NCBI GenBank assembly: GCA_902595855.1
Contig: CACJRY010000003.1
Coordinates: 57,098-121,097, forward strand
DNA length: 64,000 bases
Origin: an uncultured Alphaproteobacteria bacterium
Lineage (GTDB): Bacteria; Pseudomonadota; Alphaproteobacteria; HIMB59; GCA-002718135
Reading direction: 5' to 3'
Positions 14,615-34,755 of this stretch are shown here, piece by piece. Position 1 is the stretch's first letter; each line of letters opens with the position of its first letter. Made by a program: the position numbers and the translations under genes. The notes beneath the pieces are model-generated. The model made no database searches. It saw only the letters and a list, made by a program, of their open reading frames with translations, and was not told the origin of the DNA.

Positions 14615-14941
14615 TTATTCCATATAAAATATTTCATCCATCATTACCCATGAATTATTATTTTCATTATTTGGAAAGGGATTAAAACAATCAATCATTA
14701 ATTTTGTCCACTTATCAACAATGGGAATTTTTTGCATCTCTTCCATATCCTTATTAAAATTATCCCCATCATATTCTAGATAACCAAACATAAAATCTTC
14801 TTTTAAATAAATACTATAATTTTTTACTTTAATTTTTTTTAATTCTTCTAAAACTTCAGGCCAAACATTGGCATGATTTTTGATGTAAAATTCTCTTTTT
14901 TCATCTTTTAGTCTTACAGCCATTGCATATCTTTGTGTCAT
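14615..14941 (-). CDS. rhaM: L-rhamnose mutarotase
   Basis: Co-linear with E. coli RhaM/YiiL (YIKNHANVWPEVLEELKK, NYSIYL, ending FYME). Start set at the ATG at 14941, which follows AGAGGA; the track start at 14959 adds 6 aa. Confidence 0.85.
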   Translation of the reverse strand: MTQRYAMAVRLKDEKREFYIKNHANVWPEVLEELKKIKVKNYSIYLKEDFMFGYLEYDGDNFNKDMEEMQKIPIVDKWTKLMIDCFNPFPNNENNNSWVMMDEIFYME

Positions 14942-14988
14942 AATTTCCTCTTTAATCAAAAAATTAAAATTTATAAGTAAATACTATC

Positions 14989-15000
14989 TTCATATATGAA
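14989..15000. promoter_or_regulatory. perfect 12-bp palindrome TTCATATATGAA in the rhaM / binding-protein divergent spacer (candidate operator)
   Basis: Read directly from the sequence. It is centred in the 128-nt divergent region between the starts at 14941 and 15070. It is AT-rich, so a chance occurrence is possible. Confidence 0.3.
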
Positions 15001-15069
15001 AATTACCATATTTTTTTCCTTTCAAATTTACAGATAGAGTGTAATATCAAAAAAAAATTGGAGGAGAAT

Positions 15070-16422
15070 ATGAAATTATTCAAAAGTATTTTGACTGTAA
15101 TCTCTATTTTCTCTCTATCATTTAGTGCCTTTGCCGTTGATAAAAGTTTTCCTAACGATAAAGTCGCTATGTGGGGAGATTTTAGTGGTATTACATTAGA
15201 TGTAAAACTAATCGGTGGAGCTCCTTATGATCCACTTTATGAAGTGATGATTCCTATCTGGGAAGAAAAAACTGGCGGTAAGGTATCAATCCTTTCTAAA
15301 AAAAGTCACTTTGAACTAGATAAGGAAATTAAACAAGATATAGCAGCTGGCAATATTAGCTATTGCGTTGTTTCAAATCACACTAGCTTTGCTACTCAGT
15401 ACGGAGATATTTATAGAGATTTAAATGGAATTGTTCCTGGAGATTTTCTAGCTGAGTTTGTTCCTTTGGTACTTGAACACTCAACTGTTGATGGACGTCT
15501 TGTTCAACTTCCACAGCATAGTGATGTTAGTAATTTATGGTACATAAAGAGTATCTATGAAGACGAAGATAATAAAAAAAGATTTAAAGCTGAATATGGT
15601 TATGATTTGGCACCACCTGAAACTTTAGATCAGTGGAAAGAACAAGCAATTTTTTGGTCTGATCCACCTAATTTTTATGGAACGCAATATGTTGGTAAAG
15701 AAGAAGCTATTACTGGACGTTTCTATGAGTTAGTTATTGCTGAAGGTGGAGCGTTATTCGATAATGAATGGCGTCCAACATTTAATGATGAGGCTGGACA
15801 AAGAGCACTTCAATGGTTTGTTGATCTATATAATGCTCAAGCAGTTCCTGCTGGGGTGTTAAATTATCTTTGGGATGAAACAGGTCTTGGCTTTGCAAGT
15901 GGAACTGTTGCTCTAAACCTTGATTGGGGTGGATGGGGAGCATATTTCAATAGTGCTGACTCAAAAATTGGTGGCGATGTTGGTCTTGTAAGATTTCCAA
16001 TGGGCTCAGGTGGAAAAAGAGGAGGATGGTCAGGCTCTCATACTTATTCTATCTTAAATGGTTGTCCTGAAGAAAATTTGGAGGCAGCTGCTTCATTAAT
16101 ATGGATTTTAACAAATCACGAAGCTCAAATGCATGAAGCAAGAGGTGGTAAACTTCCAACTATGACAAGAGTATGGGATGATATCGCAGGTGAAATGAAT
16201 GCAGAAGGCAACGCATTTATGAGTGACCTTTTCTCTACATTCAAAGCTTCTATGGCAGAGGATGCATTTACCCCACCACTTATTCCTGAGTGGATTCCTT
16301 TTTCAAACATTATTTTCCCAGAGTTGCAAGCTGCAATTGTTGGAGATAAAACAGTCAAGGAAGCATTAGATGCTGCTGCTAAAGAAACTGATTATTTAAT
16401 GCAAGACGCTGGTTATTACTAA
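15070..16422 (+). CDS. periplasmic solute-binding protein, family 1 (sugar, CUT1)
   Basis: Signal peptide MKLFKSILTVISIFSLSFSAFA. Start set at the ATG at 15070, preceded by GGAGGA; the track starts at a TTG at 15058. Confidence 0.85.
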   Translation: MKLFKSILTVISIFSLSFSAFAVDKSFPNDKVAMWGDFSGITLDVKLIGGAPYDPLYEVMIPIWEEKTGGKVSILSKKSHFELDKEIKQDIAAGNISYCVVSNHTSFATQYGDIYRDLNGIVPGDFLAEFVPLVLEHSTVDGRLVQLPQHSDVSNLWYIKSIYEDEDNKKRFKAEYGYDLAPPETLDQWKEQAIFWSDPPNFYGTQYVGKEEAITGRFYELVIAEGGALFDNEWRPTFNDEAGQRALQWFVDLYNAQAVPAGVLNYLWDETGLGFASGTVALNLDWGGWGAYFNSADSKIGGDVGLVRFPMGSGGKRGGWSGSHTYSILNGCPEENLEAAASLIWILTNHEAQMHEARGGKLPTMTRVWDDIAGEMNAEGNAFMSDLFSTFKASMAEDAFTPPLIPEWIPFSNIIFPELQAAIVGDKTVKEALDAAAKETDYLMQDAGYY

Positions 16423-16432
16423 TCTCTTGCAA

Positions 16433-16462
16433 GACTACTCCTCATGAAAGTGAGGGGTAGTC
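16433..16462 (+). other. GC-rich RNA hairpin immediately after the binding-protein gene
   Basis: 12-bp stem: GACTACTCCTCA pairs with TGAGGGGTAGTC (one G-U pair), with a 6-nt loop. It begins 11 nt after the stop codon and has no U-tract. It looks more like a 3'-end stabiliser or processing site than a strong terminator. Confidence 0.45.
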
Positions 16463-16490
16463 ATAAATTTAATTTAATCAAAATTTACAT

Positions 16491-17570
16491 ATGGCCGACA
16501 AAGAAAATACAATTAAAAATTTTAGTCAAACTTGGCCAATGCCAAACAAATTAAACCCAATAATAATTATTGGAACTGGAGGAATAGTTAAGGATGCTCA
16601 TCTTCCAGCTTATAAAAAAGCAGGTTTTGAAGTTCATGGTCTATATGATGTTGACTCAGAAAAAGCAAAAAACTTAGCAAAAGAATTTGGAATTACTAAT
16701 GTTTTCGACTCTCTTGAAGAAGCTTTTCAAAACAAAGATCATATTTTTGATTTAGCGCTTCCCCCAGCAAACTTATTAGAGGTAGTGGAAAAACTTCCTG
16801 ACAATATCTATGCTGTTTTTCAAAAACCGCTTGGTAGATCTTTAGAGGAGGGAAACGAAATAAGAAAAATTTGTCATCAAAAAAATATAAAAGCATGTAT
16901 GAATTTTCAGTTACGTTTCAGTCCAATTTCTCTTCCAGTATATGAGGCAATTAAACAAAATATTTTAGGTGAATTAGTAGAGCTTGAAGTTCATGTCAAT
17001 GTACACACTCCTTGGGAGTTATGGCCATTTCTAAAATCATTAGATAGAGTCGAAGTTCCATTGCACTCAATCCATTACATTGATTGGATACGTTCTGTTC
17101 TTGGAAATCCTCAGGGTGTTTACTGCCAGTCAGTAAAGCATCCTAATGTAAAAGAGTTAGCCGATTGCCGAACCAGTGCAATTTTTAATTATGGTAATCA
17201 AATTAGATGTTGTATGACTATTAATCATACACATAGCTTTGGAAGAAAAAACCAAGATGCATATATTCGTTTAGAGGGTACAAAAGGTGCAGCTAAAATG
17301 AAATTAGGTCTGTTATTAGATTATCCAACTGGAGAACCAGAAGAACTAGAAATAATAACTGAAGGAACTGATTGGATAAAATTTGATATTCAAGGCAAGT
17401 GGTTTCCAGATGCATTTATAGGCGTAATGGCAAATATGCAAAGATTTAAAAATGGTGAAGATTCTGAATTATTAACTTCAATTGATGACTCCATTCATAC
17501 TATGGCAGTTGTTGACTCATGTGGTATCTCTAGTCAATCAGGTGGATTAAAAATAGATTACGCTGATTAA
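16491..17570 (+). CDS. Gfo/Idh/MocA-family NAD(P) oxidoreductase (candidate sugar 1-dehydrogenase)
   Basis: 359 aa with N-terminal IIIIGTGGIVKDAHLPAY Rossmann fold. It is embedded between the SBP and permease genes. Confidence 0.75.
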   Translation: MADKENTIKNFSQTWPMPNKLNPIIIIGTGGIVKDAHLPAYKKAGFEVHGLYDVDSEKAKNLAKEFGITNVFDSLEEAFQNKDHIFDLALPPANLLEVVEKLPDNIYAVFQKPLGRSLEEGNEIRKICHQKNIKACMNFQLRFSPISLPVYEAIKQNILGELVELEVHVNVHTPWELWPFLKSLDRVEVPLHSIHYIDWIRSVLGNPQGVYCQSVKHPNVKELADCRTSAIFNYGNQIRCCMTINHTHSFGRKNQDAYIRLEGTKGAAKMKLGLLLDYPTGEPEELEIITEGTDWIKFDIQGKWFPDAFIGVMANMQRFKNGEDSELLTSIDDSIHTMAVVDSCGISSQSGGLKIDYAD

Positions 17571-17573
17571 TTG

Positions 17574-18464
17574 ATGGTTAGAAAAATTTTTAGAAGTCCA
17601 GTTATGTTAATCATGCCATCAATTTTGGCTATAGGTTTTGTAATTATAATTCCACTCATTTTTTCTTTCTATACAAGTTTTACATCATATAAACTCACAC
17701 GCCCTGATAGCCTTTTTAATTTTGTTGGATTGCGTAATTATGAAAGACTGATTGATAATGCAAAATTTTGGTATGCTTTTGGAAGAACTATTCTATTTTT
17801 AGCAGTTGTTCTTAACTTAGAATTATTATTTGGGCTGGGTATTGCGCTATTAATTAATAAAATTACTTGGGGGCAAAGAACCTTAAGAACAATTATGATG
17901 TTTCCAATGATGTTCTCACCAATCTTAGTAGGATTTCAGTGGAAATATATTTTTAATGATAACATTGGCTTATTAAATAATTTTTTATACTTGTTTGGTT
18001 ATGAGTCTGCCATTCCTTGGTTAATAGACAAATATCTTGCTATGGGATCTATTATGGTTGCAGAAATTTGGGCTAATACTTCAATTTTTGCTATTCTGCT
18101 ACTAGCAGGTCTATTAGGAATACCAAGAGATCCTGTTGAAGCTGCAAGAGTTGATGGTTGTAACAGTTGGCAAGTGTTTAAAAATATTACTTTACCATTT
18201 CTAATGCCATTTATTTTTATAGCTCTTACTATTAGATCATTAGATGTGGGAAGGGCTTATGATATTGTTCATATAATGACAGGCGGTGGTCCAGCAATGA
18301 GAACAGAGCTGCTTTGGACAATGATTGCTAGAATAGGATATAAAGATGCTAATATGGGTTTTGCAAATGCAATGTCTTATGTATCAATAATATTATCTAT
18401 TGCATTTACATATTATTTTTTTACAAAGTTAGTTGCGGCTAGAAGAGATTTGGGACAGCAATAA
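17574..18464 (+). CDS. CUT1-type ABC sugar transporter permease
   Basis: Multi-TM with EAA loop DPVEAARVDGCNSWQVFKNITLPFLMP. The ATG at 17574 follows the upstream stop by 3 nt. Confidence 0.85.
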   Translation: MVRKIFRSPVMLIMPSILAIGFVIIIPLIFSFYTSFTSYKLTRPDSLFNFVGLRNYERLIDNAKFWYAFGRTILFLAVVLNLELLFGLGIALLINKITWGQRTLRTIMMFPMMFSPILVGFQWKYIFNDNIGLLNNFLYLFGYESAIPWLIDKYLAMGSIMVAEIWANTSIFAILLLAGLLGIPRDPVEAARVDGCNSWQVFKNITLPFLMPFIFIALTIRSLDVGRAYDIVHIMTGGGPAMRTELLWTMIARIGYKDANMGFANAMSYVSIILSIAFTYYFFTKLVAARRDLGQQ

Positions 18465-19303
18465 TGAAACAAATAAAAAAAATAGGATTTTGGTTTTTGG
18501 TTCTTTTTCTTTTAATATTAATTTGTTTGCCTGGTATATGGATTTTTATCAGTGCTTTTCGTCCTAATCCAGAAATTTTAGCTAAGCCTGCTAACTGGAT
18601 TCCAGACAGATGGACACTCCATCAATTTACTCAAATGTTTAGTATTAATGGTTATGTATCTGTCCCTGCATTCAAGTACTTAATGAATTCAATAATAATT
18701 TCCTCTGTTAGCACAGTAATTGCTATTACTATAGGTATGATGGGTGGATATGCGTTTGCAAGATTTAATTTTAAAGGAAAAAATAAAATCTTTCTTAGTT
18801 TAATGTTAGCAAGAGCAGTTCCAGGAATATCACTAAGTTTGCCTCTATTTATTTTATTTGCTAAGCTTGGTATAATTAATACATCTTTTGGCGTAATCCT
18901 AGTTTATGTTGCAATGAATGTTCCTTTTACAATTTGGTTAACTGATGGTTTTTTTAGACAAATACCAAAAGAGATGTCTGAAGTTGCTAGAACAGATGGT
19001 TGCACAAGGTTCCAAGCGTTTTGGAATGTTGAACTACCTCTTGCCGGACCTGGTATTGGTGCTGCTGCAATATTTGCTTTTCTATTATCATGGAATGAAT
19101 ATGCATTAGCTTCTATCATAACTAGAACTGTGCATTCCAAAACTCTACCCATTGGTATGATGGATTACTTAGATGAGTTTACGATCAATTGGGCAGGTAT
19201 GTGTGCAATAGCAGTAGTAATGATCATTCCTGCTTTAATATTAACATTTATTGTTCAAAAACACTTGGTTTCTGGATTAACATTTGGAGGAGTAAAAGGG
19301 TAA
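18464..19303 (+). CDS. CUT1-type ABC sugar transporter permease
   Basis: 279 aa with EAA loop [27 protein letters not shown]. It overlaps the previous gene by 1 nt. Confidence 0.85.
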
Positions 19304-19304
19304 T

Positions 19305-20402
19305 ATGGCTAAGGTTGAATTAAAAAACTTAACAAAGAAATACGGTGACGTTGTCGCTGTTCAAAATATGGATTTAACAATTCCGCACAATGAATTTCTT
19401 GTGTTGGTTGGACCCTCAGGATGTGGAAAATCAACCACCTTGAGAATGATTGCAGGACTTGAAGAAATTTCTGGAGGAGAAATTTACATAGGTGATCAAA
19501 AAGTTAATGAAAAAGATCCTAAAGATCGAAATGTTTCGATGGTTTTTCAAAACTATGCTCTTTATCCCCACATGACAGTTGAAGAAAATTTAGGTTTTAG
19601 TCTAAAAATTGCAAAAGTTAATCCTGATGAAATTGAAACAAAAGTTAAAGATGCTGTAAGTATCTTAGGTTTGGAGGATTTAAGAAAAAGAAAACCTTCA
19701 CAACTTTCTGGAGGACAAAGACAAAGAGTTGCAATGGGTAGAGCTATTGTTCGCCGACCTGATGCTTTTTTATTTGATGAACCTCTTTCTAATTTAGATG
19801 CCAAACTTAGAACTCAGATGAGAACTGAAATAAAAAAACTTCATCAAAAACTTAAAACAACAGTCATATACGTAACACATGATCAGGTGGAAGCTATGAC
19901 TTTAGCAGATAGAATTATAATAATGAAAGATGGTTTTATTGAGCAAATTGGATCTCCAATTGAGGTTTTTAACAACCCTGTAAACGTATTTGTTGCGACT
20001 TTTATTGGTAGTCCACCAATGAATATTATTGCGTGTGAAATAAATAAAAGCAATGATCAGATAATGATTCAATTAGATAAAGATATTCATGTTCATTGCC
20101 CTGAAGATAAAATATCAAAACTTGCTAACTTAAAAAAAGTCATTGTTGGAATAAGAGCAGAAGATATTGTTCCAATAAAAAATATTTCTAATGAACAAAA
20201 TACATTATGGACTTTCAGTAAAGAAATTGATCTCGCTGAACCTCTTGGCACTGAAACGCAACTTTTTTTTAAATTACAAAACCAAGAAATAATAAGTCGT
20301 ATGTATAACCCTAGACCAGTTGATGTTGGAGAAAATATAAATTTTCAAATAGAAAAAAATAAAATTCATTTTTTTGATTATGAAACACAAAAAGCAATCT
20401 AA
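19305..20402 (+). CDS. ABC transporter ATP-binding protein, MalK/UgpC/MsmX type
   Basis: 365 aa with Walker [10 protein letters not shown], signature LSGGQRQR, Walker B FLFDEPLS and a C-terminal regulatory domain. Confidence 0.9.
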
Positions 20403-21195
20403 AAATTACAGCGCACCAGCTCTAGAAAAAGGATTAGATATTTTAGAACTGTTATCAAATTCTGCTGAAGGTCTTAGTCAAGCTGAAATTGCAGGTAAGT
20501 TAAATAAATCAGTAAATGAAATTTATAGAATGGTAACAACTTTAAGAAAAAGAGAGTATGTAGATTTTGATAATGAAAAAGAAGTTTATAGACTTTCTTT
20601 TAAAATTTTAAACATGACTTCAAAATTTGAACCAGTTAAAACTCTTACAACAAGAGCTATTCCTATAATGAAAGAAATTACTACAAAAGCAACCCAATCT
20701 GTTCATCTAGCTATTTATACAAAAGGTAAAATATTAATTATTGCTCAGGAAGATAGCCCTTCGTCTTTTAATTATCATGTTTCAGTTGGTGCAAGTTTTG
20801 ACTTGCTTGAAACATCATCTGGTAGAGTTATATTAACTTTCCAAAATGAAAAAGAAAGAAAAAGACGACTAGAGAGAAGAAAGTTTTATTCAAGGTTGGA
20901 GACAACTTCAAAAATATCAGTTTCTGAATTAAAAAAAATTGAAAAACTTTTTTCTAAAAATACAATGAAAAAAATTGAAAAAAATAAATATGAATTGGTA
21001 AAGAGTTTACAAATTAAAGGAGTAACAAATATCTCAGTTCCAATTTTTGATCATACTAATAATGCAATTGCGGCCCTTACAATTCCTTTTGTGGATAGAA
21101 TAATTACAAAAGATGAGCTAAGTTTAGAGAAGGTTAAAAAATTATTGATATACTCAGCAGAATTACTTTCAGCAGAAATGGGTTATAAAAATTAG
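20374..21195 (+). CDS. IclR-family transcriptional regulator
   Basis: 273 aa. The N-terminal winged [44 protein letters not shown] is typical of IclR/KdgR. The start (20374 or 20380) overlaps the ATPase gene. Confidence 0.8.
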
Positions 21196-21197
21196 AG

Positions 21198-21851
21198 ATG
21201 TCAGCAAATATTAATACAGCAAGATTATCCAAATGTTATAGTTCTGTAATTCATGACATCATGAGAGATGATGGTTATAATAATTTCACACTTCCACCTA
21301 ACATCAAACCCTGCAAAAATCACCATGTGCTCGCGGGACAAATTTTTACTATGGAAGGAAAAGTGAACAAATCTCTAAGTCATCACGAAACTCTTTTAGC
21401 TTGGACAGGCTTTTTATCAAAGGCTCCTAGTGATAAGGTAGTTATTTGTCAGCCACATAACAATGAGGTAGCTTTGATGGGTGAGTTATCTGCAGAAACA
21501 CTGCAACAAAAAGGTGTCAAAGGTTACATTGTTGATGGAGGAGCAAGAGATTTAGATTTTATATTAAAAATTGATTTTCCAGTTTGGAGTAGTTTTTATA
21601 CACCAAGAGATGTAGTTGGTTACTGGCATCCTACAAAATTTGAGCAACCAATTAAAATAGGTGATACAGTTATCAATAATAATGATTATGTTTTAGCAGA
21701 CATTGATGGAGTTGTAATTATTCCATCTAATATTATTGAGGATATTTTAATAAGAGCTGAAAAATTAATTAGTACAGAAAATTTAGTAAGAAAATCTATC
21801 CGTGAAGGCATGGATCCTCAAGAAGCATATCTCAAATATAGCGTTTTTTAA
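21198..21851 (+). CDS. RraA-like protein / class II pyruvate aldolase-oxaloacetate decarboxylase family
   Basis: 217 aa with blocks MGELSAETLQQKGVKGYIVDGGARD and ADIDGVVIIP, characteristic of the RraA / 4-hydroxy-4-methyl-2-oxoglutarate aldolase family. Confidence 0.75.
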   Translation: MSANINTARLSKCYSSVIHDIMRDDGYNNFTLPPNIKPCKNHHVLAGQIFTMEGKVNKSLSHHETLLAWTGFLSKAPSDKVVICQPHNNEVALMGELSAETLQQKGVKGYIVDGGARDLDFILKIDFPVWSSFYTPRDVVGYWHPTKFEQPIKIGDTVINNNDYVLADIDGVVIIPSNIIEDILIRAEKLISTENLVRKSIREGMDPQEAYLKYSVF

Positions 21852-22295
21852 TTATTTTTTTTCAACAAGCAATATATGTTCAGAATAGCAAACGCACTTA
21901 TCATTTTGATTTAATATTTCACAAGCTTCATTAACTTGACCGTATTGAGGTCTTTTAGGGTCATCCTTTTTTTCTTTAATGGTAACTTTTGTGTGTATAG
22001 TATCTCCAATGAAAACGGGATTAGGAAAACGAAGTCTTTCAAATCCATATGTGAAAGCTCTTTTATTAACAACTGATGCAGTAAGAGCAATTCCAATTGA
22101 AAATGTACAACTAAATTGTGCAATTCTCTGACCAAAAGGAGTTGTTTTAGCAAATTCAGCATCAACGTGGTGAGGGTAGAAGTCTCCTGAATGCATTGCA
22201 TGCATGACGATATCTGTTTCAGTAATTGTTCTTGCTGCAGTAATTCTTTCTGCCCCTACTTCGTAATCTTCAAAAAATTGCTCAATCTCTACCAT
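21852..22295 (-). CDS. MaoC-like (R)-specific enoyl-CoA hydratase (single hot-dog)
   Basis: 147 aa. The hydratase-2 motif is retained: SGDFYPHHVDAEFA, with Asp and His present. Its stop codon abuts the RraA stop (TAATTA). Confidence 0.75.
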   Translation of the reverse strand: MVEIEQFFEDYEVGAERITAARTITETDIVMHAMHSGDFYPHHVDAEFAKTTPFGQRIAQFSCTFSIGIALTASVVNKRAFTYGFERLRFPNPVFIGDTIHTKVTIKEKKDDPKRPQYGQVNEACEILNQNDKCVCYSEHILLVEKK

Positions 22296-22311
22296 GTTTC
22301 CTCATTATTTT

Positions 22312-22325
22312 TATTGAATTCAATA
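22312..22325. promoter_or_regulatory. perfect 14-bp palindrome TATTGAATTCAATA in the 62-nt divergent spacer between the two MaoC genes (candidate operator)
   Basis: Read directly from the sequence. It is the only sizeable symmetric element in the spacer that must hold both promoters, and an IclR regulator gene lies 1.1 kb upstream. Confidence 0.35.
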
Positions 22326-22357
22326 TTTTAAGATAATAGAGTAGCATAATTTTAAAT

Positions 22358-22921
22358 ATGAATAAAGATTTTAAATATAAAAATACTATTGGAATTGAAT
22401 CAACTTTTCCAAAAGATATGCCTCAAGAACATAGCAAATTACCTGTGTGGAATTCAGAAAATTGGTTTTATGAAGATGTGATTGTTGATCATAAGATAAG
22501 ATCTCTTAGAAGGACAATTTCTGAAGGCGAAGCTATGCAGTTTAATTGTATGGTACTTGATATGCACCCCTATGTTGGTGATGAACATTTTGCTAAAAAT
22601 GAAGGTCTATTTAAAAAAAGACTAGTGGCAGGAGCAATGGTTTTTTCTTATGGCTTGGGTTTGGTAGCGACTAATTGTGTTAACTCATTTAGTTATGGGT
22701 ATGATCGCTTAAGATTTATTAAACCAGTTTTTATTGGTGATACGATATACACAATTAGAACAAATATGGAAAAAAAACCTAAATATGAAAAAATGGGCTT
22801 GGTTAGAACTAGTTATGAAGTTTTTAAAGGTGATGGCGAGATTGTACTTTACTGTGAACACTTACACTCTGTTTTGTATAAAAAGCCTGAGGATTTTAAA
22901 GACCAATATGAAAAAAAATGA
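22358..22921 (+). CDS. MaoC-like hot-dog protein with a degenerate hydratase motif
   Basis: 187 aa. The C-terminal two thirds align by eye with the 147-aa paralogue ([22 protein letters not shown] versus [22 protein letters not shown]). The motif region reads [13 protein letters not shown], with Val at the expected catalytic His position. Confidence 0.65.
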
Positions 22922-24048
22922 TCCAACTCAAAGGCATGACATGGGATCATTCAAGAGGTTATGACCCAATGATTGCTACAAGTGATTTTTTTTCAAAAAA
23001 ACATAATAATAAAGTTCAAATAAACTGGGAAAAAAGATCATTACAAGCATTTGCAGACAGACCAATAGATCAAATGGCAGATGAATATGATTTAATGGTC
23101 ATTGATTATCCGCATGTTGGGGAAGTGTCAGCTAAAGGTTTATTGCAAAAATTTGATGTTGATGAATACCAAAGTGAATTAAATTTATTGAAAGAACAGT
23201 CTGTAGGACTCTCTCATCAAAGCTATAATATTGATGGTCATCAATGGGCATTAGCAATTGATGCGGCAACTCAGGTATGTTGTTTTAGAAAAGATTTAAT
23301 ACCCTTTTTACCACAATCTTGGAACGAACTTTCAAATTTAGCTCAACAAAATAAAGTTCTTTGGCCTTTAAAGCCAGTACATGCAATAAGTAGCTTTTAT
23401 AGTATTTACAATAATATTACTGATGAGTTTAATCCTAAAGACAAAAATTTTATAAATAAAGAATTTGGAATTAAGACATTAGAAATGATGAAACATATAA
23501 CAGAACATTTAATTAGTGATTGTTTCATAATGGATCCAATCAAAACTGCAGAAATTTTATCATCTACTGATGATTTTTATTATTCACCTTACACATATGG
23601 ATTTTCAAATTACTCCCGAGAAAATTTCAGAGAAAATATTTTAACATATGGTAATGTTATGGACTTATCAAATAAAGGCCCTAAAGGAACCCATTTAGGC
23701 GGAACTGGAATTGCAATATCTAATAAAAGTTATCATAAAGATCTTGCATTAGAATATAGTTATTGGATTGCAGGGGCTGATTGTCAAAAATCAATTTTCT
23801 ATAAAAGTGGGGGGCAGCCAGGTAATTCTATTGCATGGGAAAATCAGCAAATAAATGCTGAATGTAATGGATTTTTTACTAATACAAGATTAACGTTAAA
23901 TCAAGCCTGGATCAGACCAAGACATAATGGGTATATGAAGTTTCAAGATGAAAGTGGAGAGATTATTAATGAATACCTTCAATCAAATACTAATGAAGAC
24001 ATTATCATTGATAAGTTAAAAATTATGTATGCAGAAAGTTTTGAATAA
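22918..24048 (+). CDS. cytoplasmic (signal-peptide-less) family-1 solute-binding-protein-fold protein, function unknown
   Basis: 376 aa. The N-terminus [25 protein letters not shown] has no hydrophobic leader. SBP_bac_1-like blocks are present: [25 protein letters not shown] and [30 protein letters not shown] overlap with the upstream gene. Confidence 0.55.
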
Positions 24049-24052
24049 TAAG

Positions 24053-25201
24053 ATGTCTAGACCTTTGGAAGGATTAACAGTTCTAGAATTTAGTCAATTT
24101 TTGTCAGGACCATATGCCGGTCTACGATTATCTGATTTAGGAGCAAGAGTTATTAAAATTGAGAGACCTGAAGTTGGAGATCTATGCAGGACACTTTACA
24201 TTAGTGATACTGATTTAGAAGGGGATAGCACTTTATTTCATGCAATTAATCGTAATAAGGAGAGTTTTGCTGCAAATTTAAAGGACCCTAAAGATTTGGA
24301 TTTAGTTAAAAAACTAATAACCAAAGCTGATATTATTACTCAAAATTTTAGACCAGGCGTTATCGAAAAGATTGGCCTTGATTATGAAAGTGTAAAAAAA
24401 ATAAATTCAAAAATTGTTTATGGCTCAATCTCTGGTTATGGTTCTGAGGGACCTTGGAAAGATTTACCAGGACAAGATCTGCTTGCTCAATCAAGAACAG
24501 GTTTAGTTTGGTTAAATGGAAATGGTGGTGAAGCACCCACACCAATGGGTTTAGCTGTCGCTGATATGCTTGCCGGACATTCTCTTGTTGAAGGAATTTT
24601 GTCAGCTGTAATTAAAAGATTTAGGACTAATGAAGGATCTCATATTGAAACAAGTTTAGTCGAGGCACTGCTAGATTTTCAATTTGAAGTTTTAACTACA
24701 TATTTTAATGATGGAAATAGAAAACCAGTAAGAAGCAAATATAATAATGCTCATGCTTATTTATCCGCTCCTTACGGAATTTATAAAACAAAAGATGGTT
24801 TTGTTGCAATTGCGATGACACCACTGCCAAAACTTGGTGAATTATTAGATCTTGAATTTTTAAAAAATATGCATGATCAAAAAAAATGGTTCACTGAAAG
24901 AGATGAAATAAAGAAAAAGATTGGAGATTGGGTGAACGCACAAACTACATCCCACATATTAAGTATTCTTGAGCCTGCTGATATTTGGTGTGCGGAAGTT
25001 TTAGATTGGGAAAAAATGTTAAAACATGAAGGTTTTAAAATTTTAGATATGACCCAGCGAATTATAGGAGTTGATGGATTGAATATTGAAACACTAAGAT
25101 GCCCAATAAGAGTTAATGGAAAAATATTTAAATCAGAGAAAGCTGCTCCAAAGGTGGGACAAGATAATGAAAAAATAATAGCAGAAATGAATATTGTATG
25201 A
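24053..25201 (+). CDS. family III (CaiB/BaiF) CoA-transferase
   Basis: The N-terminal block PLEGLTVLEFSQFLSGPYAGLRLSDLGARVIKIERP is a hallmark of the family. The ATG at 24053 is preferred to the track start at 24029, which overlaps the upstream gene. Confidence 0.85.
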   Translation: MSRPLEGLTVLEFSQFLSGPYAGLRLSDLGARVIKIERPEVGDLCRTLYISDTDLEGDSTLFHAINRNKESFAANLKDPKDLDLVKKLITKADIITQNFRPGVIEKIGLDYESVKKINSKIVYGSISGYGSEGPWKDLPGQDLLAQSRTGLVWLNGNGGEAPTPMGLAVADMLAGHSLVEGILSAVIKRFRTNEGSHIETSLVEALLDFQFEVLTTYFNDGNRKPVRSKYNNAHAYLSAPYGIYKTKDGFVAIAMTPLPKLGELLDLEFLKNMHDQKKWFTERDEIKKKIGDWVNAQTTSHILSILEPADIWCAEVLDWEKMLKHEGFKILDMTQRIIGVDGLNIETLRCPIRVNGKIFKSEKAAPKVGQDNEKIIAEMNIV

Positions 25202-26304
25202 AGATTACTGATATAGAAATACGCGCATGTCGTCATAGGGATCCTGTAATGAAAGACTCAGAGATGCGTGATGGAAAAAAATCAGATTTAGAATTTTTAG
25301 TAGTAACTTTTCACACAAATGAAGGTTTAAGCACATCTACTTTTGGTTTTGCAGGAAGAGGAGCATCGATGGCAGGAGAAATAGCTAATAGTATTTTCAA
25401 ACCATTTTTTATTGGTAGAGATCCTTTATATAGGGAAAAGCATTGGCATGAATACCGAATGGCAGATCGATGGTGGAATCATGCTCCGATATATAGTTAT
25501 GGACCTTTTGATATTAATTGTTGGGTTTTATCATCTCTACAAGCAAGTCAGCCGTTATATAAATATTTAGGCGCGTATAGAGATCAAGTTCCAATTTATG
25601 GAAGTTCTCTTGTTTATAAAACACCAGAGCAATATGCAAAAGAGGCGAAAGAATATCAAAATAAAGGTTTTAATGCTTATAAAATTCATCCTCCTGGAAC
25701 ATACGATTTAGATTTAGAAATTCATAAAGCTGTAAGATCAGCTGTGGGTAATGATTTTAAATTAATGAGTGACCCTGTAGCTCCATATACTTTTGAGCAA
25801 GCTTTGCGTTTAGGAAGAGAATTAGAAAAATTAAATTATTACTGGTATGAAGAACCATTATTTGATGAAAACTTTCATAACCTTAGAGAATTAACAAGAA
25901 TATTAGATATCCCAATTATTGGTACTGAAGTAATTGCAAAACATCCCTACAGTGTTGCAGAATGTATTTCGACTAGAGTAGTTGATATGGTTAGAGCAGA
26001 TGTATCTTGGAGTGGTGGTATCACCGCAACAATGAAAACTGCTCACTTAGCTGAAAGTTTTGGTGTTCAGTGTGAAATTCATACAGCAATTTATCATCCT
26101 CTAGAATTGGTAAATTTACATTGTTGTGCTGCAATAAAAAATTCAGAATTTTTTGAGGTTCTTGTTCCTTACGATTATTTCGATTTTGGGTTAAAGGAAA
26201 AAATAAAAGTTGAAAATGGTTCTGCACAATTGCCTTCTAAACCCGGTCTTGGTATTGAATTAGATTGGGATTTTATTGATAACACTACTTTCAAAAAATT
26301 TTAA
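25198..26304 (+). CDS. enolase-superfamily protein, specificity unknown (atypical K-x-H)
   Basis: 368 aa with blocks YKIHPPG (K-I-H where FucD has K-V-K), LMSDP, WYEEP, GTE, DMVRAD and CEIHT. It overlaps the CoA-transferase gene by 4 nt. Confidence 0.75.
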   Translation: MKITDIEIRACRHRDPVMKDSEMRDGKKSDLEFLVVTFHTNEGLSTSTFGFAGRGASMAGEIANSIFKPFFIGRDPLYREKHWHEYRMADRWWNHAPIYSYGPFDINCWVLSSLQASQPLYKYLGAYRDQVPIYGSSLVYKTPEQYAKEAKEYQNKGFNAYKIHPPGTYDLDLEIHKAVRSAVGNDFKLMSDPVAPYTFEQALRLGRELEKLNYYWYEEPLFDENFHNLRELTRILDIPIIGTEVIAKHPYSVAECISTRVVDMVRADVSWSGGITATMKTAHLAESFGVQCEIHTAIYHPLELVNLHCCAAIKNSEFFEVLVPYDYFDFGLKEKIKVENGSAQLPSKPGLGIELDWDFIDNTTFKKF

Positions 26305-26306
26305 CA

Positions 26307-27608
26307 ATGACTAAAATTTTAAGATTTACAGTTGAGGATATTAGATTTCCAACATCAAAAGATCTTACAGGCTCTGATGCAATTCATACTGATCCAGATT
26401 ATTCCGCTACATATGTTACTGCTTATACTGATGACTCAAATCTGAAAGGTTATGGAATAGCTTTTACAATAGGAAAAGGTAATGACATTGTTGCAGAGTG
26501 TATTAAATATTTTTTTCCAACTTTTGAAAATATGAATTTGGATGACATAGAAAATGATATTGGAAAACTCTGGTATAAATGCGTTGACCATAGTCAACTT
26601 AGATGGCTTGGTCCTGAAAAGGGAGCAGTCCATATGGCGGTCGCAGCTATATTTAATTGTCTATGGGATTTAATTGCCAAGAAAAATAAAAAACCACTTT
26701 GGAAGTTTGTAGCAGAAAGTGATCCAGAAAAAATACTTAGTTGGTTAACTTTCAAGTATATTGAAGATGTTTTAACCCCGGATCAGGCTTTAAAAATTTT
26801 AAAAGATAGTCAAAATGATAAAAAAGCAAGAATAGATAAAATTTTAAAAGAAGGTTATCCTTCTTACACTACAGCAGCTGGTTGGCTTGGTTACTCAGAT
26901 GAAAAAATAGTAAAACTATGTAAAAAATATATTTCTATGGGTTGGAAACATTTCAAAGTTAAAGTTGGTTTGGATCTAGAGGCCGATGTAAAAAGACTTG
27001 AATTAATAAGAAAGACAATAGGTGATGACTGTCATATTATGGTTGACGCTAACCAACAATGGAGTGTGGAACAATCAATAAAGCATATTAATGCTTATAA
27101 AAAATTTAATTTATTATTTGTTGAAGAGCCTACAAGTCCAGATGACGTACTAGGTTTTGTAAAAATAAAAGCATCAGTAGGAAATGTTAAGCTTGCAACC
27201 GGAGAAGCTTGTGGTGGCAGAGTTATGTTTAAGCAATTTTTAGAGTCAGGATCTATGAATGTGTGCCAAATTGATAGTTGTCGCATTGGCAGCATTAATG
27301 AAATTTTAACTGTAATGCTAATGGCACATAAATTTAAAGTACCAATCTTCCCTCATGCTGGAGGAGTTGGTTTATGTGAGTATGTCCAACATTTATGTAT
27401 GATTGATTATGTACTTATAAATGGAGATAAAAATAATAAATTTGTTGAATATTCTGATCAACTACATGAGCATTTCATATATCCATGTAACTTAAAGGAT
27501 GGTAATTACATGCCACCTTTAGATCATGGATATTCTATTGAAATGAAAGAAAACTCTGTTAAGGAGTTCTCTTATCCTCATGGATTTTATTGGCAGAGTA
27601 ATAAATGA
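26307..27608 (+). CDS. fucD: L-fuconate dehydratase
   Basis: 433 aa, co-linear by eye with Xanthomonas campestris FucD. Shared blocks: IRFPTSKDLTGSDAIHTDPDYSATYV, SQLRWLGPEKGAVHMA, GYPSYTTAAGWLGYSDEK, FKVKVG, VDANQQW, VEEPTSPDDVLG, FPHAGGVGLCEYVQHL. Confidence 0.9.
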   Translation: MTKILRFTVEDIRFPTSKDLTGSDAIHTDPDYSATYVTAYTDDSNLKGYGIAFTIGKGNDIVAECIKYFFPTFENMNLDDIENDIGKLWYKCVDHSQLRWLGPEKGAVHMAVAAIFNCLWDLIAKKNKKPLWKFVAESDPEKILSWLTFKYIEDVLTPDQALKILKDSQNDKKARIDKILKEGYPSYTTAAGWLGYSDEKIVKLCKKYISMGWKHFKVKVGLDLEADVKRLELIRKTIGDDCHIMVDANQQWSVEQSIKHINAYKKFNLLFVEEPTSPDDVLGFVKIKASVGNVKLATGEACGGRVMFKQFLESGSMNVCQIDSCRIGSINEILTVMLMAHKFKVPIFPHAGGVGLCEYVQHLCMIDYVLINGDKNNKFVEYSDQLHEHFIYPCNLKDGNYMPPLDHGYSIEMKENSVKEFSYPHGFYWQSNK

Positions 27609-28342
27609 GACTAACAAATAAAAATATTATAGTAACTGCTGCAGCTCAAGGTATTGGCAGGGCTACTGCAATAGCTTTTGCAAATGAAGGTGCAAATGTC
27701 ATTGCAACAGATATAAATGAAGATAAGCTTAAAGAAATTTCAAAAGAAAATAAAAATATTCAAATGCAAAAACTTGATGCAACTAGCAAAACTGAGGTTG
27801 AGGATTTTTGCTCGAATATAAATGAAATTGACATATTATTTCATGCTGTGGGCTTTGTTCACCATGGTAATATAATGGATTGTGATACTGAGGAATTTTA
27901 TAGATCAGTAAATGTAAATATTTACTCTGCTTATTTAATGACTCATAATTTATTACCCAAGATGCTGAAAAATAAAAAAGGAAACATCATTATAGTCTCT
28001 TCTGCGGCATCAAGCGTAAAAGGTGTACCAAATAGATTTATCTATGGAACAACAAAAGCGGCACTCAATGGGTTTGTAAAAGCTCTAGCCGCAGATTATG
28101 TTGGTCAGGGGATAAGATGTAACGCTATTTTGCCTGGTACAGTTGAAACACCTTCTTGGGAAGGGAGAGTGCAAATGGCTGATGATCCAAAAAAAGCTAG
28201 AGAAGATTTTATAGCAAGACAGGCAATGGGCCGTCTTGCTCAACCAAGTGAGATTGCATCAATGGCACTTTATTTAGCAAGTGATGAATCTGATTTTGTG
28301 ACTGGAACACTTAATTTAATTGATGGAGGATGGACTTTATAA
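27605..28342 (+). CDS. short-chain dehydrogenase, 2-keto-3-deoxy-L-fuconate/rhamnonate 4-dehydrogenase-like
   Basis: 245 aa classical SDR with TAAAQGIGRA and YGTTKAAL (YxxxK). Its position directly after fucD matches the published fuconate operon logic. Confidence 0.7.
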   Translation: MRLTNKNIIVTAAAQGIGRATAIAFANEGANVIATDINEDKLKEISKENKNIQMQKLDATSKTEVEDFCSNINEIDILFHAVGFVHHGNIMDCDTEEFYRSVNVNIYSAYLMTHNLLPKMLKNKKGNIIIVSSAASSVKGVPNRFIYGTTKAALNGFVKALAADYVGQGIRCNAILPGTVETPSWEGRVQMADDPKKAREDFIARQAMGRLAQPSEIASMALYLASDESDFVTGTLNLIDGGWTL

Positions 28343-29190
28343 TGAAAACACTAAGATATAGAATTGGTAATGAGGTTAAGCCAGGAATTTTAGATTCTGA
28401 TGAAAACATACTTGATGCTTCCAGTTTGGTTTCTGATTGGGATAATGAAAATGTAACAACAGATAAGTTGAATGAATTAAAAAATAGTGATTTGAGTTCT
28501 CTCCCAAAAGTAGATAAAATTGATAGTATAGCTCCTTGTGTATGTAAAAAAAGTGTTGGAAAATTTATTTGCATAGGTCTAAATTATTCTGATCATGCAG
28601 AGGAAACTGGAATGGAAGTTCCTCCTGAGCCAATTATTTTTTTTAAAGCTACGAGTGCTATTATTGGACCTAACGATAATGTAATCATTCCAAAAAATTC
28701 TAAAAAATCAGATTGGGAAGTTGAGTTAGGAATTGTAATTGGAAAAGAAGCTAAATATATTTCTGAAGACCAATCACAAGATCATATAGCAGGTTATTGT
28801 GTTGTGAATGATTTAAGTGAGAGAGCTTTTCAATTAGAACATTCTGGACAATGGGTAAAAGGAAAATCTTGTGATACTTTCGGACCTATAGGTCCATATT
28901 TAGTAACTAAAGATGAAGTTTCTGATCCTCAAAATTTATCAATGTGGTTAGAAGTTAATGGAAAAAGGATGCAGGATGGTTCAACCAAAACAATGGTTTA
29001 TGGTGTTAATTTTTTAGTTAGTTATTTAAGTCATTTTATGTCTTTACAGCCTGGTGATATTATTTCGACAGGAACACCACCAGGAGTTGGTATGGGTTTA
29101 AAACCACAGACATTTTTAAAACCTGGTGATGAAATGAAGCTTGGCATTGAAGGATTGGGTACTCAAACTCAAAAAACAATATCTGCATAA
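28342..29190 (+). CDS. fumarylacetoacetate-hydrolase-family protein, 2,4-diketo-3-deoxy-L-fuconate/rhamnonate hydrolase-like
   Basis: FAH-family blocks GLNYSDHAEE, DWEVELGIVIGK and GDIISTGTPPGVG. The ATG at 28342 overlaps the SDR stop (TAATG); the track start at 28330 adds 4 aa. Confidence 0.7.
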   Translation: MKTLRYRIGNEVKPGILDSDENILDASSLVSDWDNENVTTDKLNELKNSDLSSLPKVDKIDSIAPCVCKKSVGKFICIGLNYSDHAEETGMEVPPEPIIFFKATSAIIGPNDNVIIPKNSKKSDWEVELGIVIGKEAKYISEDQSQDHIAGYCVVNDLSERAFQLEHSGQWVKGKSCDTFGPIGPYLVTKDEVSDPQNLSMWLEVNGKRMQDGSTKTMVYGVNFLVSYLSHFMSLQPGDIISTGTPPGVGMGLKPQTFLKPGDEMKLGIEGLGTQTQKTISA

Positions 29191-30344
29191 TGTTTGGTGG
29201 AATAGAAAATTGTCATAACGTTAAAGATTTTAGAAAATTAGCTAAAAAAAAATTACCAAGTCCCATTTTTCATTACATTGATGGCGCGGCTGATGATGAG
29301 ATTACTTATAAAAGAAATACAGATTCTTTTGACTCATGCGATTTAGTTCCTAATGTTTTATCTGGAGTAGATAAAATTGACATGTCTACAACAGTTATGG
29401 GACAAAAAATTGATATACCTTTGTATTGTGCTCCAACTGCTCTTCAGCGATTATTTCATTATGAGGGTGAAATCGGTGTTGCTAAAGCGGCTGAAAAATA
29501 TGGCACCATGTTTGGCATTTCCTCTTTAGGTACAGCGAGTATTGAAGAAATATCAAATTTAGTATCAACACCAAAATTATTTCAATTATATGTTCATAAG
29601 GATGAGGGTCTAAACAAAGATCTAATTGATAGATGTAAAAACTCAAATTTTGAAGCTATGGCAGTAACAGTAGATACAGCTGTTGGAGGTAATAGAGAAA
29701 GAGATCTTAAAACAGGTTTTACAATACCAATGAAACTTTCTTTAAGTAGTGCTATTAGTTTTGCCACACACCCATCATGGGCCTTTAATTATTTTACAAA
29801 ACCTAAATGGGAATTAAGCAATTTAAAAAATCATATTGCAGCAGGAACAAGTGTAATGACAAGCATAGGTGATTATTTTACTCAGATGTTAAATAATTCT
29901 CTTGATTGGAAAGGAGTTGAAAAAATTAATAAAGAATGGGGCAAACAATTTGCTATTAAAGGAATTATGTCTGTAGAGGATGCAAAAAAAGCAGTTGATG
30001 TTGGAGCAACTGCAGTAATGGTTTCAAATCATGGAGGAAGGCAACTTGATGGATCAAGATCACCATTCGACCAACTTGCCGAAATAGTTGATGCTGTTGG
30101 TGATAAAATTGATGTTATTTGTGAGGGAGGAATTCGAAGAGGTACACACGTTTTAAAAGCTTTATCACTTGGAGCGAAAGCCTGTTCAGGAGGGAGAATG
30201 TATCTTTATGCATTGGCTGCCGGAGGACAAAAGGGAGTTGAAAAAACTTTATTTAATCTTAAAAATGAAATTGAAAGAGATATGAAATTAATGGGCGTTT
30301 CTTCAATTGATCAATTAACGCGAAAAAATTTAAAGTTTAGATAA
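29190..30344 (+). CDS. lldD: FMN-dependent alpha-hydroxy-acid dehydrogenase, L-lactate dehydrogenase-like
   Basis: 384 aa with the family block VSNHGGRQLDG. TAATG overlap with the hydrolase gene. L-lactate is the expected product of the upstream hydrolase. Confidence 0.7.
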   Translation: MFGGIENCHNVKDFRKLAKKKLPSPIFHYIDGAADDEITYKRNTDSFDSCDLVPNVLSGVDKIDMSTTVMGQKIDIPLYCAPTALQRLFHYEGEIGVAKAAEKYGTMFGISSLGTASIEEISNLVSTPKLFQLYVHKDEGLNKDLIDRCKNSNFEAMAVTVDTAVGGNRERDLKTGFTIPMKLSLSSAISFATHPSWAFNYFTKPKWELSNLKNHIAAGTSVMTSIGDYFTQMLNNSLDWKGVEKINKEWGKQFAIKGIMSVEDAKKAVDVGATAVMVSNHGGRQLDGSRSPFDQLAEIVDAVGDKIDVICEGGIRRGTHVLKALSLGAKACSGGRMYLYALAAGGQKGVEKTLFNLKNEIERDMKLMGVSSIDQLTRKNLKFR

Positions 30345-30387: not shown

Positions 30388-30708
30388 ATGAATTTAGAAA
30401 TAGAGCCAGTACATATTGGTCAGGAAGATGACATTGATGTTGGAAGTGTAGAAAATTTTGAACATGAGGAAATAGATTATGCTATTTTTCGCTTAGAGTC
30501 TGGCTTCTTTGCAACTCAAGGGCACTGCAATTGTGCAGACCAAGCCTTTTTAAGTGAAGCTAATGTTGAGGGGGAAGAGCTTGAGTGCGCTAGTTGTGGA
30601 AATACATTTAGTATAGTATCTGGAGATCCCATAAGTGATCCTGAATTACTAGCATTAAAAATTTTTGATATATATGAAGAGGATGGAGACATTTTTTTAA
30701 ATCTCTAA
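30388..30708 (+). CDS. small Rieske-fold-like protein with four Cys in place of the 2Cys/2His ligands
   Basis: 106 aa. The pattern is C47-N-C49-x17-C67-A-S-C70, spaced like the Rieske motif C-x-H-x15-17-C-x-x-H. Flanking sequence (YAIFRLESGFFATQGHC ... IFDIYEEDGDIFLNL) resembles Rieske-type ferredoxins. Confidence 0.5.
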   Translation: MNLEIEPVHIGQEDDIDVGSVENFEHEEIDYAIFRLESGFFATQGHCNCADQAFLSEANVEGEELECASCGNTFSIVSGDPISDPELLALKIFDIYEEDGDIFLNL

Positions 30709-33639: not shown

Positions 33640-33726
33640 CTCAGAAAGCTTGAAATTGCTTATTTTTCATATTCTAAAAAAAATAACTCGTCTTTACTTT
33701 CTATGATAAAATTTATTATTTTTTAG

Positions 33727-33738
33727 TAAAACGTTTTA
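33727..33738. promoter_or_regulatory. perfect 12-bp palindrome TAAAACGTTTTA upstream of the binding-protein gene (LacI-type operator-like core AACGTT)
   Basis: Read directly from the sequence, about 100 nt upstream of the ATG at 33837 in the longest intergenic spacer of the window. No LacI-family gene is present in the window. Confidence 0.3.
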
Positions 33739-33836
33739 TTAATTAACAACATTTTTCAATTTATACTTGATTTACTTATTGCTCTGAATATTAGTAAATG
33801 GTTAATTATTAATAATTTAACTATTTAGGAGGAAAT

Positions 33837-34742: not shown

Positions 34743-34755
34743 TTTATTAGTTTAA

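Follow-up and report, generated by a model that had tools for sequence, protein, structure and literature searches.

In this study, we analyzed a 64,000-nucleotide stretch of DNA from an uncultured alphaproteobacterium of the HIMB59 group (GenBank assembly GCA_902595855.1, contig CACJRY010000003.1, positions 57,098 to 121,097 of the forward strand; hereafter the window, whose own numbering is used below). We identified in it a leaderless protein with the fold of a MalE-type substrate-binding protein (SBP), encoded among the soluble enzymes of a putative L-fucose operon. Within clusters for oxidative sugar breakdown, genes of this family are inherited together with those for a family-III CoA-transferase and a CoA-ester hydratase and are translationally coupled to them, and they show no genetic tie to permeases. 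By fold and descent, the protein is an SBP of the MalE cluster. It should not be filed as a transporter SBP, since export and permease linkage, the two defining features of such a protein, both fail. We propose that it may capture a sugar acid or lactone and hand it to the CoA-transferase/hydratase step, a reading to which we give roughly even odds (probability about 0.5).

Open reading frame and absence of a leader

The subject of this study is the following gene, defined by its open reading frame (ORF), Pfam matches, AlphaFold2 model and Foldseek matches.

22918-24048, + strand: leaderless MalE-type SBP-fold protein, 376 amino acids (aa)

The product begins with [28 protein letters not shown] (the opening run is also given as [17 protein letters not shown]). 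In the frame of the ATG at 22918, the 5' context reads TGA-AAA-AAA-ATG. Because this in-frame TGA lies two codons before the ATG, a longer N-terminus is impossible, and a hidden leader or an earlier start was ruled out. The initial annotation, made from the sequence alone, had likewise seen no upstream in-frame start that could encode a leader. It had also described the protein as free of a hydrophobic leader or lipobox and the three bona fide SBPs of the window as leader-bearing, and both descriptions hold. The 12-residue Kyte-Doolittle maximum over residues 1-40 is 0.17, a hydrophilic value, and by the same measure the three transporter SBPs (15058-16422, 8778-10085 on the - strand, and 33837-34742) score 2.3-2.9 and have classic leaders. 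The product lacks a lipobox and a twin-arginine motif, and its first Cys comes no earlier than residue 121. A transmembrane helix is not present, since the 19-residue hydropathy maximum is just 0.82. The protein is predicted to be cytoplasmic.

The close packing noted in the initial annotation was also found here. The ATG overlaps the stop codon of the upstream MaoC gene (ATGA), and the CoA-transferase ATG at 24053 follows 4 nt after the SBP-like gene. Orthologs support 24053 as the start of the CoA-transferase, and the alternative start at 24029 offered by the ORF lister is unused by them. Among Pfam models, SBP_bac_8 is a marginal pass (30.7 bits, cutoff 27) and SBP_bac_1 falls under its cutoff (23.8 bits, cutoff 26); no NCBIfam model was reached.

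Fold and relationship to sugar-binding proteins

An AlphaFold2 model, calculated from an alignment of 78 diverse homologs, has a mean predicted local distance difference test score of 96.7 and a predicted template modeling (TM) score of 0.93. It displays the two-lobe type-II periplasmic-binding-protein fold with a hinge and a central cleft. In a Foldseek search against the PDB, the top 50 matches were solely carbohydrate SBPs or fusion constructs with maltose-binding protein (best E value 4e-19), with TM scores of 0.75-0.85 to sugar SBPs at 11-17% sequence identity. The matches include a cyclodextrin-binding protein (2zyn), Thermotoga maritima MalE3 (6dtq, TM score 0.85), the sulfoquinovose-binding protein SmoF (7yzu, 0.84), and the trehalose/maltose-binding protein (TMBP) of Thermococcus litoralis (1eu8). 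Closed liganded structures outscored their apo counterparts (6dtq versus 6dtr, 2gha versus 2ghb, and 4qrz versus 4rjz). The model and the structural matches bear out the SBP fold assigned in the initial annotation, and the two family-1 SBP-like sequence blocks cited there both align to the matching blocks of TMBP.

TMBP (1eu8) is the nearest PDB sequence by family profile, at 81 bits, and the same profile search found no solved structure of any family member in the PDB. Alignment of the family profile to Escherichia coli MalE by hhalign gave a probability of 93%. The possibility that the gene is a recent copy of the SBP of its own cluster (15058-16422) was rejected, because there was no significant blastp match and the hhalign probability was 30%, below that to MalE.

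The protein has the same two-lobe type-II fold as MalE, TMBP, LpqY, and SmoF, which are SBPs of CUT1 importers, and it has detectable sequence homology to them, with the GGxG hinge strand and the RP motif in common. The conserved residues of the family fall at the canonical cleft positions of these proteins. Unlike them, however, the family lacks a signal peptide or lipobox and has no adjoining permease or ATPase, its gene is translationally coupled to soluble enzymes, and it occurs also in Bacteroidota and beside transporters with other SBP classes. Re-use of the periplasmic-binding-protein fold in the cytoplasm is known from the effector domains of LysR and LacI regulators and from several enzymes. 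Such SBP-derived enzymes and regulators (MqnA/MqnD, THI5, DszB, the LysR/LacI domains, and others) offer a precedent for the fold acting in the cytoplasm outside transport, but most of them come from other SBP clusters, and none is among the top 50 Foldseek matches.

Extent of the family

A word-indexed search retrieved 2,249 relatives, of which the best 120 share at least 64% identity and are 376-379 aa long, save one 283-aa fragment. An exhaustive search of 50%-identity representatives gave 1,586 clusters, including 404 below 1e-30, and the representatives are nearly all 375-400 aa and align from query residue 1-4. Natural fusions were not present among the 150 representatives listed, all of which have at most 430 aa. 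Named carriers include HIMB59-type and Pelagibacteraceae single-amplified and metagenome-assembled genomes, Rhizobiales, Rhodobacterales, Rhodospirillales, one betaproteobacterium, one gammaproteobacterium, Bacteroidota (Filimonas, Rufibacter, and Persicobacter), and Streptomyces of the phylum Actinomycetota.

An N-terminal G-x-T-W motif lies within the first 15 residues in 238 of the 247 motif-bearing sequences retrieved (~96%). Because these 238 members leave no space for a leader, leaderlessness is a property of the family and not peculiar to this gene, which extends the initial observation to homologs elsewhere. A hydrophobic N-terminal extension occurs in just four of the 247, one of them Tat-like. 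Among the extension-bearing members P0167 (L106:29-1321) and P0226 (L107:8001-9239), one has the Tat-like sequence TRRHIFKSLAG and the other adjoins an MFS transporter gene; such members may be relatives that are exported, or their starts may be mis-called. N-terminally extended members were also checked as true transporter SBPs, and this idea was rejected: the contig of one spans just 2 kb, and the other lies beside the MFS gene, not beside ABC permeases.

Genomic neighborhood

The census of neighbors comprised 11 genome loci, 80 metagenome loci (found with a 17-sequence subset alignment), and 13 annotated plasmid regions, whose ORFs were searched with the neighbor proteins of the window and extra queries. 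Loci at 59% identity or above are called close and those below 50% distant. The strict distant set consists of 30 loci with at least 4 kb of flank on both sides; close counts out of 18 are from loci with at least 1.5 kb of flank, and those out of 10 from loci with at least 4 kb.

CaiB within 300 bp: close 18/18, distant 23/30
CaiB within 6 kb: close all, distant 27/30
MaoC within 6 kb: close all (adjacent in 18/18), distant 19/30
Crotonase-type hydratase within 6 kb: close none, distant 5/30
GFO dehydrogenase within 6 kb: close 6/10, distant 17/30
IclR within 6 kb: close 3/10, distant 17/30
ATP-binding cassette (ABC) permease within 300 bp: close none, distant 0/30
ABC permease within 6 kb: close 10/10, distant 12/30
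RhaT within 6 kb: close none, distant 4/30
TRAP DctP within 6 kb: close none, distant 6/30
Amidohydro_2 or SMP-30 lactonase within 6 kb: close 0/10, distant 10/30

The initial annotation had raised the question of whether homologs also sit beside CaiB and MaoC genes. For CaiB they do, and in a less strict set of distant loci CaiB is adjacent in 25/33. For MaoC the association stands in the majority of distant loci, but a crotonase takes its place in five; a hydratase of either type is found within 6 kb in 24 of the 30. Overlaps of 4 nt with both neighbors occur in Thalassospira, Roseateles, Rufibacter, Streptomyces, and Pseudosulfitobacter. The genes occur in every order, so we rejected a constant arrangement in which the SBP-like gene is flanked by the transferase and hydratase genes, which might have pointed to a scaffold.

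In Martelella, the order is FucD, short-chain dehydrogenase/reductase (SDR), MR/MLE enzyme, and ABC system, followed by IclR, amidohydrolase, RhaM, GFO, CaiB, SBP-like gene, and MaoC. In Thalassospira and Roseateles, the CaiB/SBP-like pair stands apart from the GFO/MaoC pair inside a single fucose-type cluster. In Filimonas and Rufibacter, the gene is accompanied by two CaiB genes, MaoC, GFO, and a RhaT symporter, with a lactonase-type amidohydrolase in Filimonas; the Rufibacter genes come after SusC/SusD-type genes, and no ABC permease is present at either locus.

Three side observations concern these loci. In the Bacteroidota-type loci L100:13670-14797 (Rufibacter plasmid) and L094:6202-7428, the CoA-transferase genes and GFO are separated by a second orphan ORF, annotated as a sugar ABC transporter substrate-binding protein. 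It has no leader as annotated, the loci have no ABC permease, and it may be a second cytoplasmic SBP-like component. Loci L049, L058, and L068 have tandem copies of the leaderless gene downstream of IclR and CaiB (e.g., L068:8814-9971 and 9974-11122). On pSymB of Sinorhizobium meliloti 1021 (L096:10839-13131), the CaiB ORF is apparently frameshifted after ~356 aa, and the CaiB/SBP-like pair stands alone beside a large TraA-like relaxase gene; this pair is probably a decaying or mobile remnant.

Public databases annotate the family as an ABC substrate-binding protein (JGI name, "multiple sugar transport system substrate-binding protein"), and the protein could be an ordinary SBP that serves the ABC system 2.5 kb upstream, either exported by a non-classical route or seemingly leaderless through a mis-called start. 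The same conserved cluster does indeed encode a complete CUT1-type ABC importer (17571-20402), which has an exported SBP of its own. ABC permeases are within 6 kb in every close locus counted and in 12 distant ones, and the few extended members, one of them Tat-like, would fit such a role. The initial remark that no permease or ATPase gene accompanies the gene is therefore correct for the immediate neighbors but not at the scale of the cluster, which holds two permeases and a MalK-type ATPase. However, the upstream stop codon and the leaderless state of ~96% of members oppose this explanation, as do the leader-bearing SBP that the cluster transporter already possesses, itself only remotely related to the protein (hhalign 30%), and the lack of an adjacent permease in any of the 30 distant loci. 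Elsewhere, moreover, the gene lies beside RhaT, TRAP, or ribose-type systems, with RhaT or TRAP instead of ABC in 10/30 distant loci. We consider a transporter role highly improbable, and the initial statement that the protein is not a transporter part is upheld.

The frequency of IclR genes bears on another explanation, in which the protein would be a cytoplasmic ligand sensor that binds a pathway sugar or sugar acid and modulates an IclR/LacI regulator or the neighboring enzymes allosterically, outside the substrate flux. Of the 30 distant loci, 5 have IclR within 300 bp and 17 have it within 6 kb, and in some loci (L047 and L060) it is the sole recognizable neighbor. However, IclR proteins carry an effector domain of their own (PF01614 in the window), the close relatives L002 and L010 keep the gene in clusters without IclR, and the tightest coupling, by 4-nt overlaps, is with enzymes and not with regulators. 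A sensor of this kind seems improbable to us.

Variant contexts

A sister subfamily (~30% identity) is found in Streptomyces, Pseudosulfitobacter, and S. medicae (L103:7796-12081, L105:7811-12027, and L108:7805-10930). Its gene order is aldose-1-epimerase-family gene, SDR, CoA-transferase, SBP-like gene, and crotonase-type enoyl-CoA hydratase, with FAH in two of the three loci and 4-nt overlaps in Streptomyces and Pseudosulfitobacter. Because the crotonase replaces the non-homologous MaoC while the trio stays, the module appears to need a CoA-ester hydration/dehydration step. The transporter next to the S. medicae operon is of the ribose (CUT2) type with its own SBP, which belongs to another structural class, so that the MalE-type protein is not the receptor of that transporter. 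Two of the three sister operons are also preceded by a GFO gene and a xylose-isomerase-like TIM gene.

On a plasmid of Microvirga ossetica (L104:6940-12765), two tandem UxuA-type genes annotated as mannonate dehydratase overlap the start of the SBP-like gene and replace the CoA-transferase and hydratase. An SMP-30 lactonase gene overlapping the SBP-like stop, an SDR, and an aldose epimerase follow downstream, and RraA is nearby. CaiB is missing within 6 kb of the gene in Microvirga and also in L047 and L060 (IclR, TRAP) and L092. The SBP-like protein can thus be placed at the stage of oxidative sugar pathways that handles sugar acids, mostly, not invariably, alongside CoA chemistry.

The L-fucose operon of the window

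In the window, MaoC-A, SBP-like, CoA-transferase, MR/MLE, FucD, SDR, FAH, and FMN dehydrogenase are eight tightly packed genes (22358-30344) whose intergenic gaps range from -13 to +4 nt. The features around the SBP-like gene are as follows.

14615-14959, - strand: RhaM-type sugar mutarotase (ORF; PF05336 on the syntenic gene in L001 and L002)
15058-20402, + strand: transport block (Pfam matches; synteny conserved), with the parts given in the next four lines
15058-16422, + strand: leader-bearing SBP (leader hydropathy 2.32)
16491-17570, + strand: GFO/Idh/MocA dehydrogenase (Pfam)
17571-19303, + strand: two permeases (Pfam)
19305-20402, + strand: MalK-type ATPase (Pfam)
20374-21195, + strand: IclR-family regulator (PF01614 and PF09339; missing from some close loci, e.g., L002)
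21198-21851, + strand: RraA-like protein, class II pyruvate aldolase/decarboxylase family (PF03737, 90.6 bits; CHA/HMG aldolase NCBIfam model below cutoff)
21852-22295, - strand: MaoC-like hydratase/dehydratase B, 147 aa, divergent (PF01575, 87.5 bits; elsewhere mostly paired with a GFO dehydrogenase)
22358-22921, + strand: MaoC-like (R)-hydratase/dehydratase A, 187 aa (PF01575, 48 bits; same upstream place in close and many distant loci)
24053-25201, + strand: family-III (CaiB/BaiF-type) CoA-transferase, the most constant neighbor of the family (PF02515, 312.7 bits)
25198-26304, + strand: enolase-superfamily (MR/MLE) acid-sugar dehydratase or cycloisomerase (PF13378, 175.7 bits)
26307-27608, + strand: L-fuconate dehydratase FucD, 433 aa (464 bits over the full length to Xanthomonas campestris 2hxt/1yey; 479 bits to human ENOSF1)
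27605-28342, + strand: SDR of the L-2-keto-3-deoxyfuconate (L-KDF) 4-dehydrogenase/BDH2 group (285 bits to human DHRS6/BDH2; 234 bits to 8y4j/8xwk/8y11)
28330-29190, + strand: FAH-family hydrolase (PF01557, 241 bits)
29190-30344, + strand: FMN-dependent 2-hydroxy-acid (L-lactate) dehydrogenase (PF01070, 427.6 bits)

The CoA-transferase contains the motif GLAVAD(171)MLAG, whose Asp is invariant in 24 orthologs; we take Asp171 to be at the place of the catalytic Asp169 in Frc and CaiB. Its best NCBIfam matches are the succinate-glutarate and succinyl-CoA:mesaconate transferases, both far under cutoff. The MR/MLE enzyme has its best PDB match in an A. tumefaciens "isomerase/lactonizing enzyme" (1rvk, 167 bits). 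The RraA-like gene is present in 10/10 close loci and 3/30 distant loci, and the best characterized relative of its product is distant (94 bits to 5ir2). The substrates of the MR/MLE and RraA-like enzymes probably define an extra branch.

FucD, the SDR, the FAH-family hydrolase, and the lactate dehydrogenase are predicted to form the Route-I non-phosphorylative L-fucose pathway. As outlined in the literature, this pathway consists of L-fucose dehydrogenase, lactonase, FucD, L-KDF 4-dehydrogenase, 2,4-diketo-3-deoxy-L-fuconate hydrolase, and lactate dehydrogenase (PMC11366302, citing Yew 2006 and Hobbs 2013; PMC11199699). BDH2 is described as a homolog of L-KDF dehydrogenase (PMC11199699), and a fucose operon is reported for part of the AEGEAN-169/HIMB59 group (PMC11366302). 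By analogy with Route I, the FAH gene stands in the place of the 2,4-diketo-3-deoxy-L-fuconate hydrolase, whose role it would fill. The mutarotase and a candidate sugar dehydrogenase complete the likeness to Route I. In contrast, a CoA-transferase, MaoC hydratases, an RraA-like protein, and a cytoplasmic SBP homolog are all missing from the pathway as outlined in those sources, and the fucose cluster of the window (14615-30344) has no recognizable lactonase. The RraA, MaoC, SBP-like, CaiB, and MR/MLE genes are additions to the Route-I pathway, and the literature searched did not yield any description of fucose or rhamnose clusters with a CoA-transferase/hydratase module.

A scan for promoters and terminators returned 59 sites against 59.6 expected by chance and was uninformative in this DNA of 31% GC. 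Two regions beyond the operon were also noted. Related loci keep a Cys-rich ORF of 106 aa (30388-30708 in the window) immediately 3' of the FMN dehydrogenase gene, and the L002 copy has a weak Rieske match. Downstream of the fucose cluster, 31795-36385 encodes a thiamine pyrophosphate-dependent enzyme (614 aa), a leader-bearing Peripla_BP_4-type SBP, and a BPD_transp_2 permease, with Pfam assignments taken from the syntenic loci L001 and L002; this region is probably a separate sugar or cyclitol utilization unit.

Conserved cleft

In the 78-sequence alignment (28-63% identity), 13 positions are invariant (W9, R13, W37, D58, D63, P65, D115, G261, G262, G264, G299, Q300, and P301), and a further 23 are conserved at 90% or more. 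In a profile alignment to MalE, whose residue equivalences are approximate, R13 pairs with K15, D63-H66 falls in the W62-R66 loop (at A63-R66), and D115/A117 matches A109/E111 on the E111 strand, with the Y225-Y232 segment at W230 and F342/Q343 near W340. We take these MalE positions to be the classical maltose-contact sites. The abundance of conserved Arg residues (R13, R124, and R333) would suit an anionic ligand such as a sugar acid. The Trp/Asp/Arg signature of the cleft is near-invariant whether the gene lies with CaiB and MaoC, CaiB and crotonase, UxuA, TRAP, or MFS genes.

The cleft also bears on the view that the protein is an enzyme derived from the SBP fold and acting on a sugar lactone or acid, for example in the lactonase step missing from the window operon or in an isomerization. 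SBP folds have repeatedly become enzymes, as in the cyclohexadienyl/prephenate dehydratases, MqnA/MqnD, THI5, DszB, and thiaminase I. An enzymatic role would fit a polar cleft that is nearly identical in all contexts, the persistence of the gene where UxuA-type dehydratases replace the CoA enzymes, and the scarcity of Amidohydro_2 or SMP-30 lactonase genes, which are missing within 6 kb in all 10 close loci and present in merely 10 of the 30 distant ones. However, the gene co-occurs with dedicated lactonases, namely the overlapping SMP-30 gene in Microvirga and the amidohydrolases in Martelella, Thalassospira, and Filimonas, and the top 50 fold matches are all binders. The invariant Trp, Asp, Arg, and Gln set is typical of carbohydrate binding, and the GGxG and RP motifs are features of the fold, because TMBP has them too. 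Less weight was given to a metal or catalytic site built on His residues (D-H-P-H motif), since the cleft-side residues H11, H64, and H66 each vary (Tyr at 64 in the window protein, Trp at 66 in Bacteroidota, and Tyr and Phe at 64 and 66 in Microvirga). We regard an SBP-derived enzyme as rather unlikely.

Proposed role

We propose that the protein is a soluble cytoplasmic descendant of MalE/trehalose-type SBPs that would have lost export and its link to an ABC permease and kept the two-lobe "Venus flytrap" intact. It would work in oxidative (non-phosphorylative) sugar pathways, here the L-fucose operon, at the stage where a sugar acid or lactone is converted onward. The putative ligand is a sugar acid (an aldonate, its lactone, or a 2-keto-3-deoxy acid), which the protein may present to the co-translated family-III CoA-transferase. 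The MaoC pair could then dehydrate or hydrate the CoA ester, and in rare lineages the UxuA-type dehydratases may do the equivalent job. We infer which ligand is bound, its transfer to the CoA-transferase, and the reactions of the CoA module.

The proposed chemistry follows the logic of carnitine metabolism. In the carnitine pathway, CaiB, a family-III CoA-transferase, and CaiD, an enoyl-CoA hydratase, together act as a CoA-dependent dehydratase of a 3-hydroxy acid. The module described here pairs a family-III CoA-transferase with a CoA-ester hydratase in the same way, and a plausible sequence of events would be activation of the acid, its dehydration, and onward transfer of the CoA. Unlike the module, the cai operon has no SBP-fold partner, and the module uses a MaoC-type hydratase (a crotonase in the sister subfamily) on what is presumably a sugar acid.

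Several points weigh against capture and hand-off to the CoA enzymes. Apart from the lactonase, the Route-I pathway predicted in the window has all its steps even if the CoA module is disregarded. The gene occurs without CaiB in Microvirga, where two UxuA genes and SMP-30 are present and there is no CoA-transferase, in Microbulbifer, where it comes after a TRAP transporter with SDR, alcohol dehydrogenase, and kinase genes, and in L047, where it lies with TRAP and IclR. Because such CaiB-less loci exist, "dedicated CaiB partner" is too narrow a description of the protein. A catalytic site would likewise be consistent with a cleft that stays invariant across differing sugar clusters. The census loci span four phyla, and their counts are not phylogenetically independent. 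Finally, no paper on the family was found in the literature searched, nor any description of the gene or of a standalone MalE-type protein coupled to CoA-transferases.

The initial annotation had interpreted the protein as a cytoplasmic component of the adjacent CoA module that captures substrate, channels it, or acts as a catalyst. The linkage to CaiB, the 4-nt overlaps, and the MaoC or crotonase partner favor this assignment, but the tie is not absolute, as the two UxuA genes in Microvirga and the few members with only TRAP or IclR demonstrate. Taken as a whole, that interpretation is partly supported, and the observation behind it is confirmed.

A bolder version of capture and hand-off can be offered tentatively. 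The module might be the first "binding-protein-dependent enzyme," in which a Venus flytrap captures a scarce sugar acid or lactone, docks on the CoA-transferase (or the UxuA-type dehydratase) as SBPs dock on permeases, and feeds an undescribed CoA-dependent branch of 6-deoxy-sugar (L-fucose-type) metabolism. If true, this branch would be widespread, from abundant marine oligotrophs to rhizobia, Bacteroidota, and Streptomyces.

The transporter annotation of this family inflates transporter counts and masks a metabolic component. The pairing of a CoA-transferase with a CoA-ester hydratase lies outside any described fucose or rhamnose route, so the family flags an uncharacterized CoA-dependent sugar-acid step. 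HIMB59/AEGEAN-169 is a streamlined and abundant ocean lineage, in which the genes that are kept are seldom dispensable. The family represents a clean case of a transport receptor re-used inside the cell.

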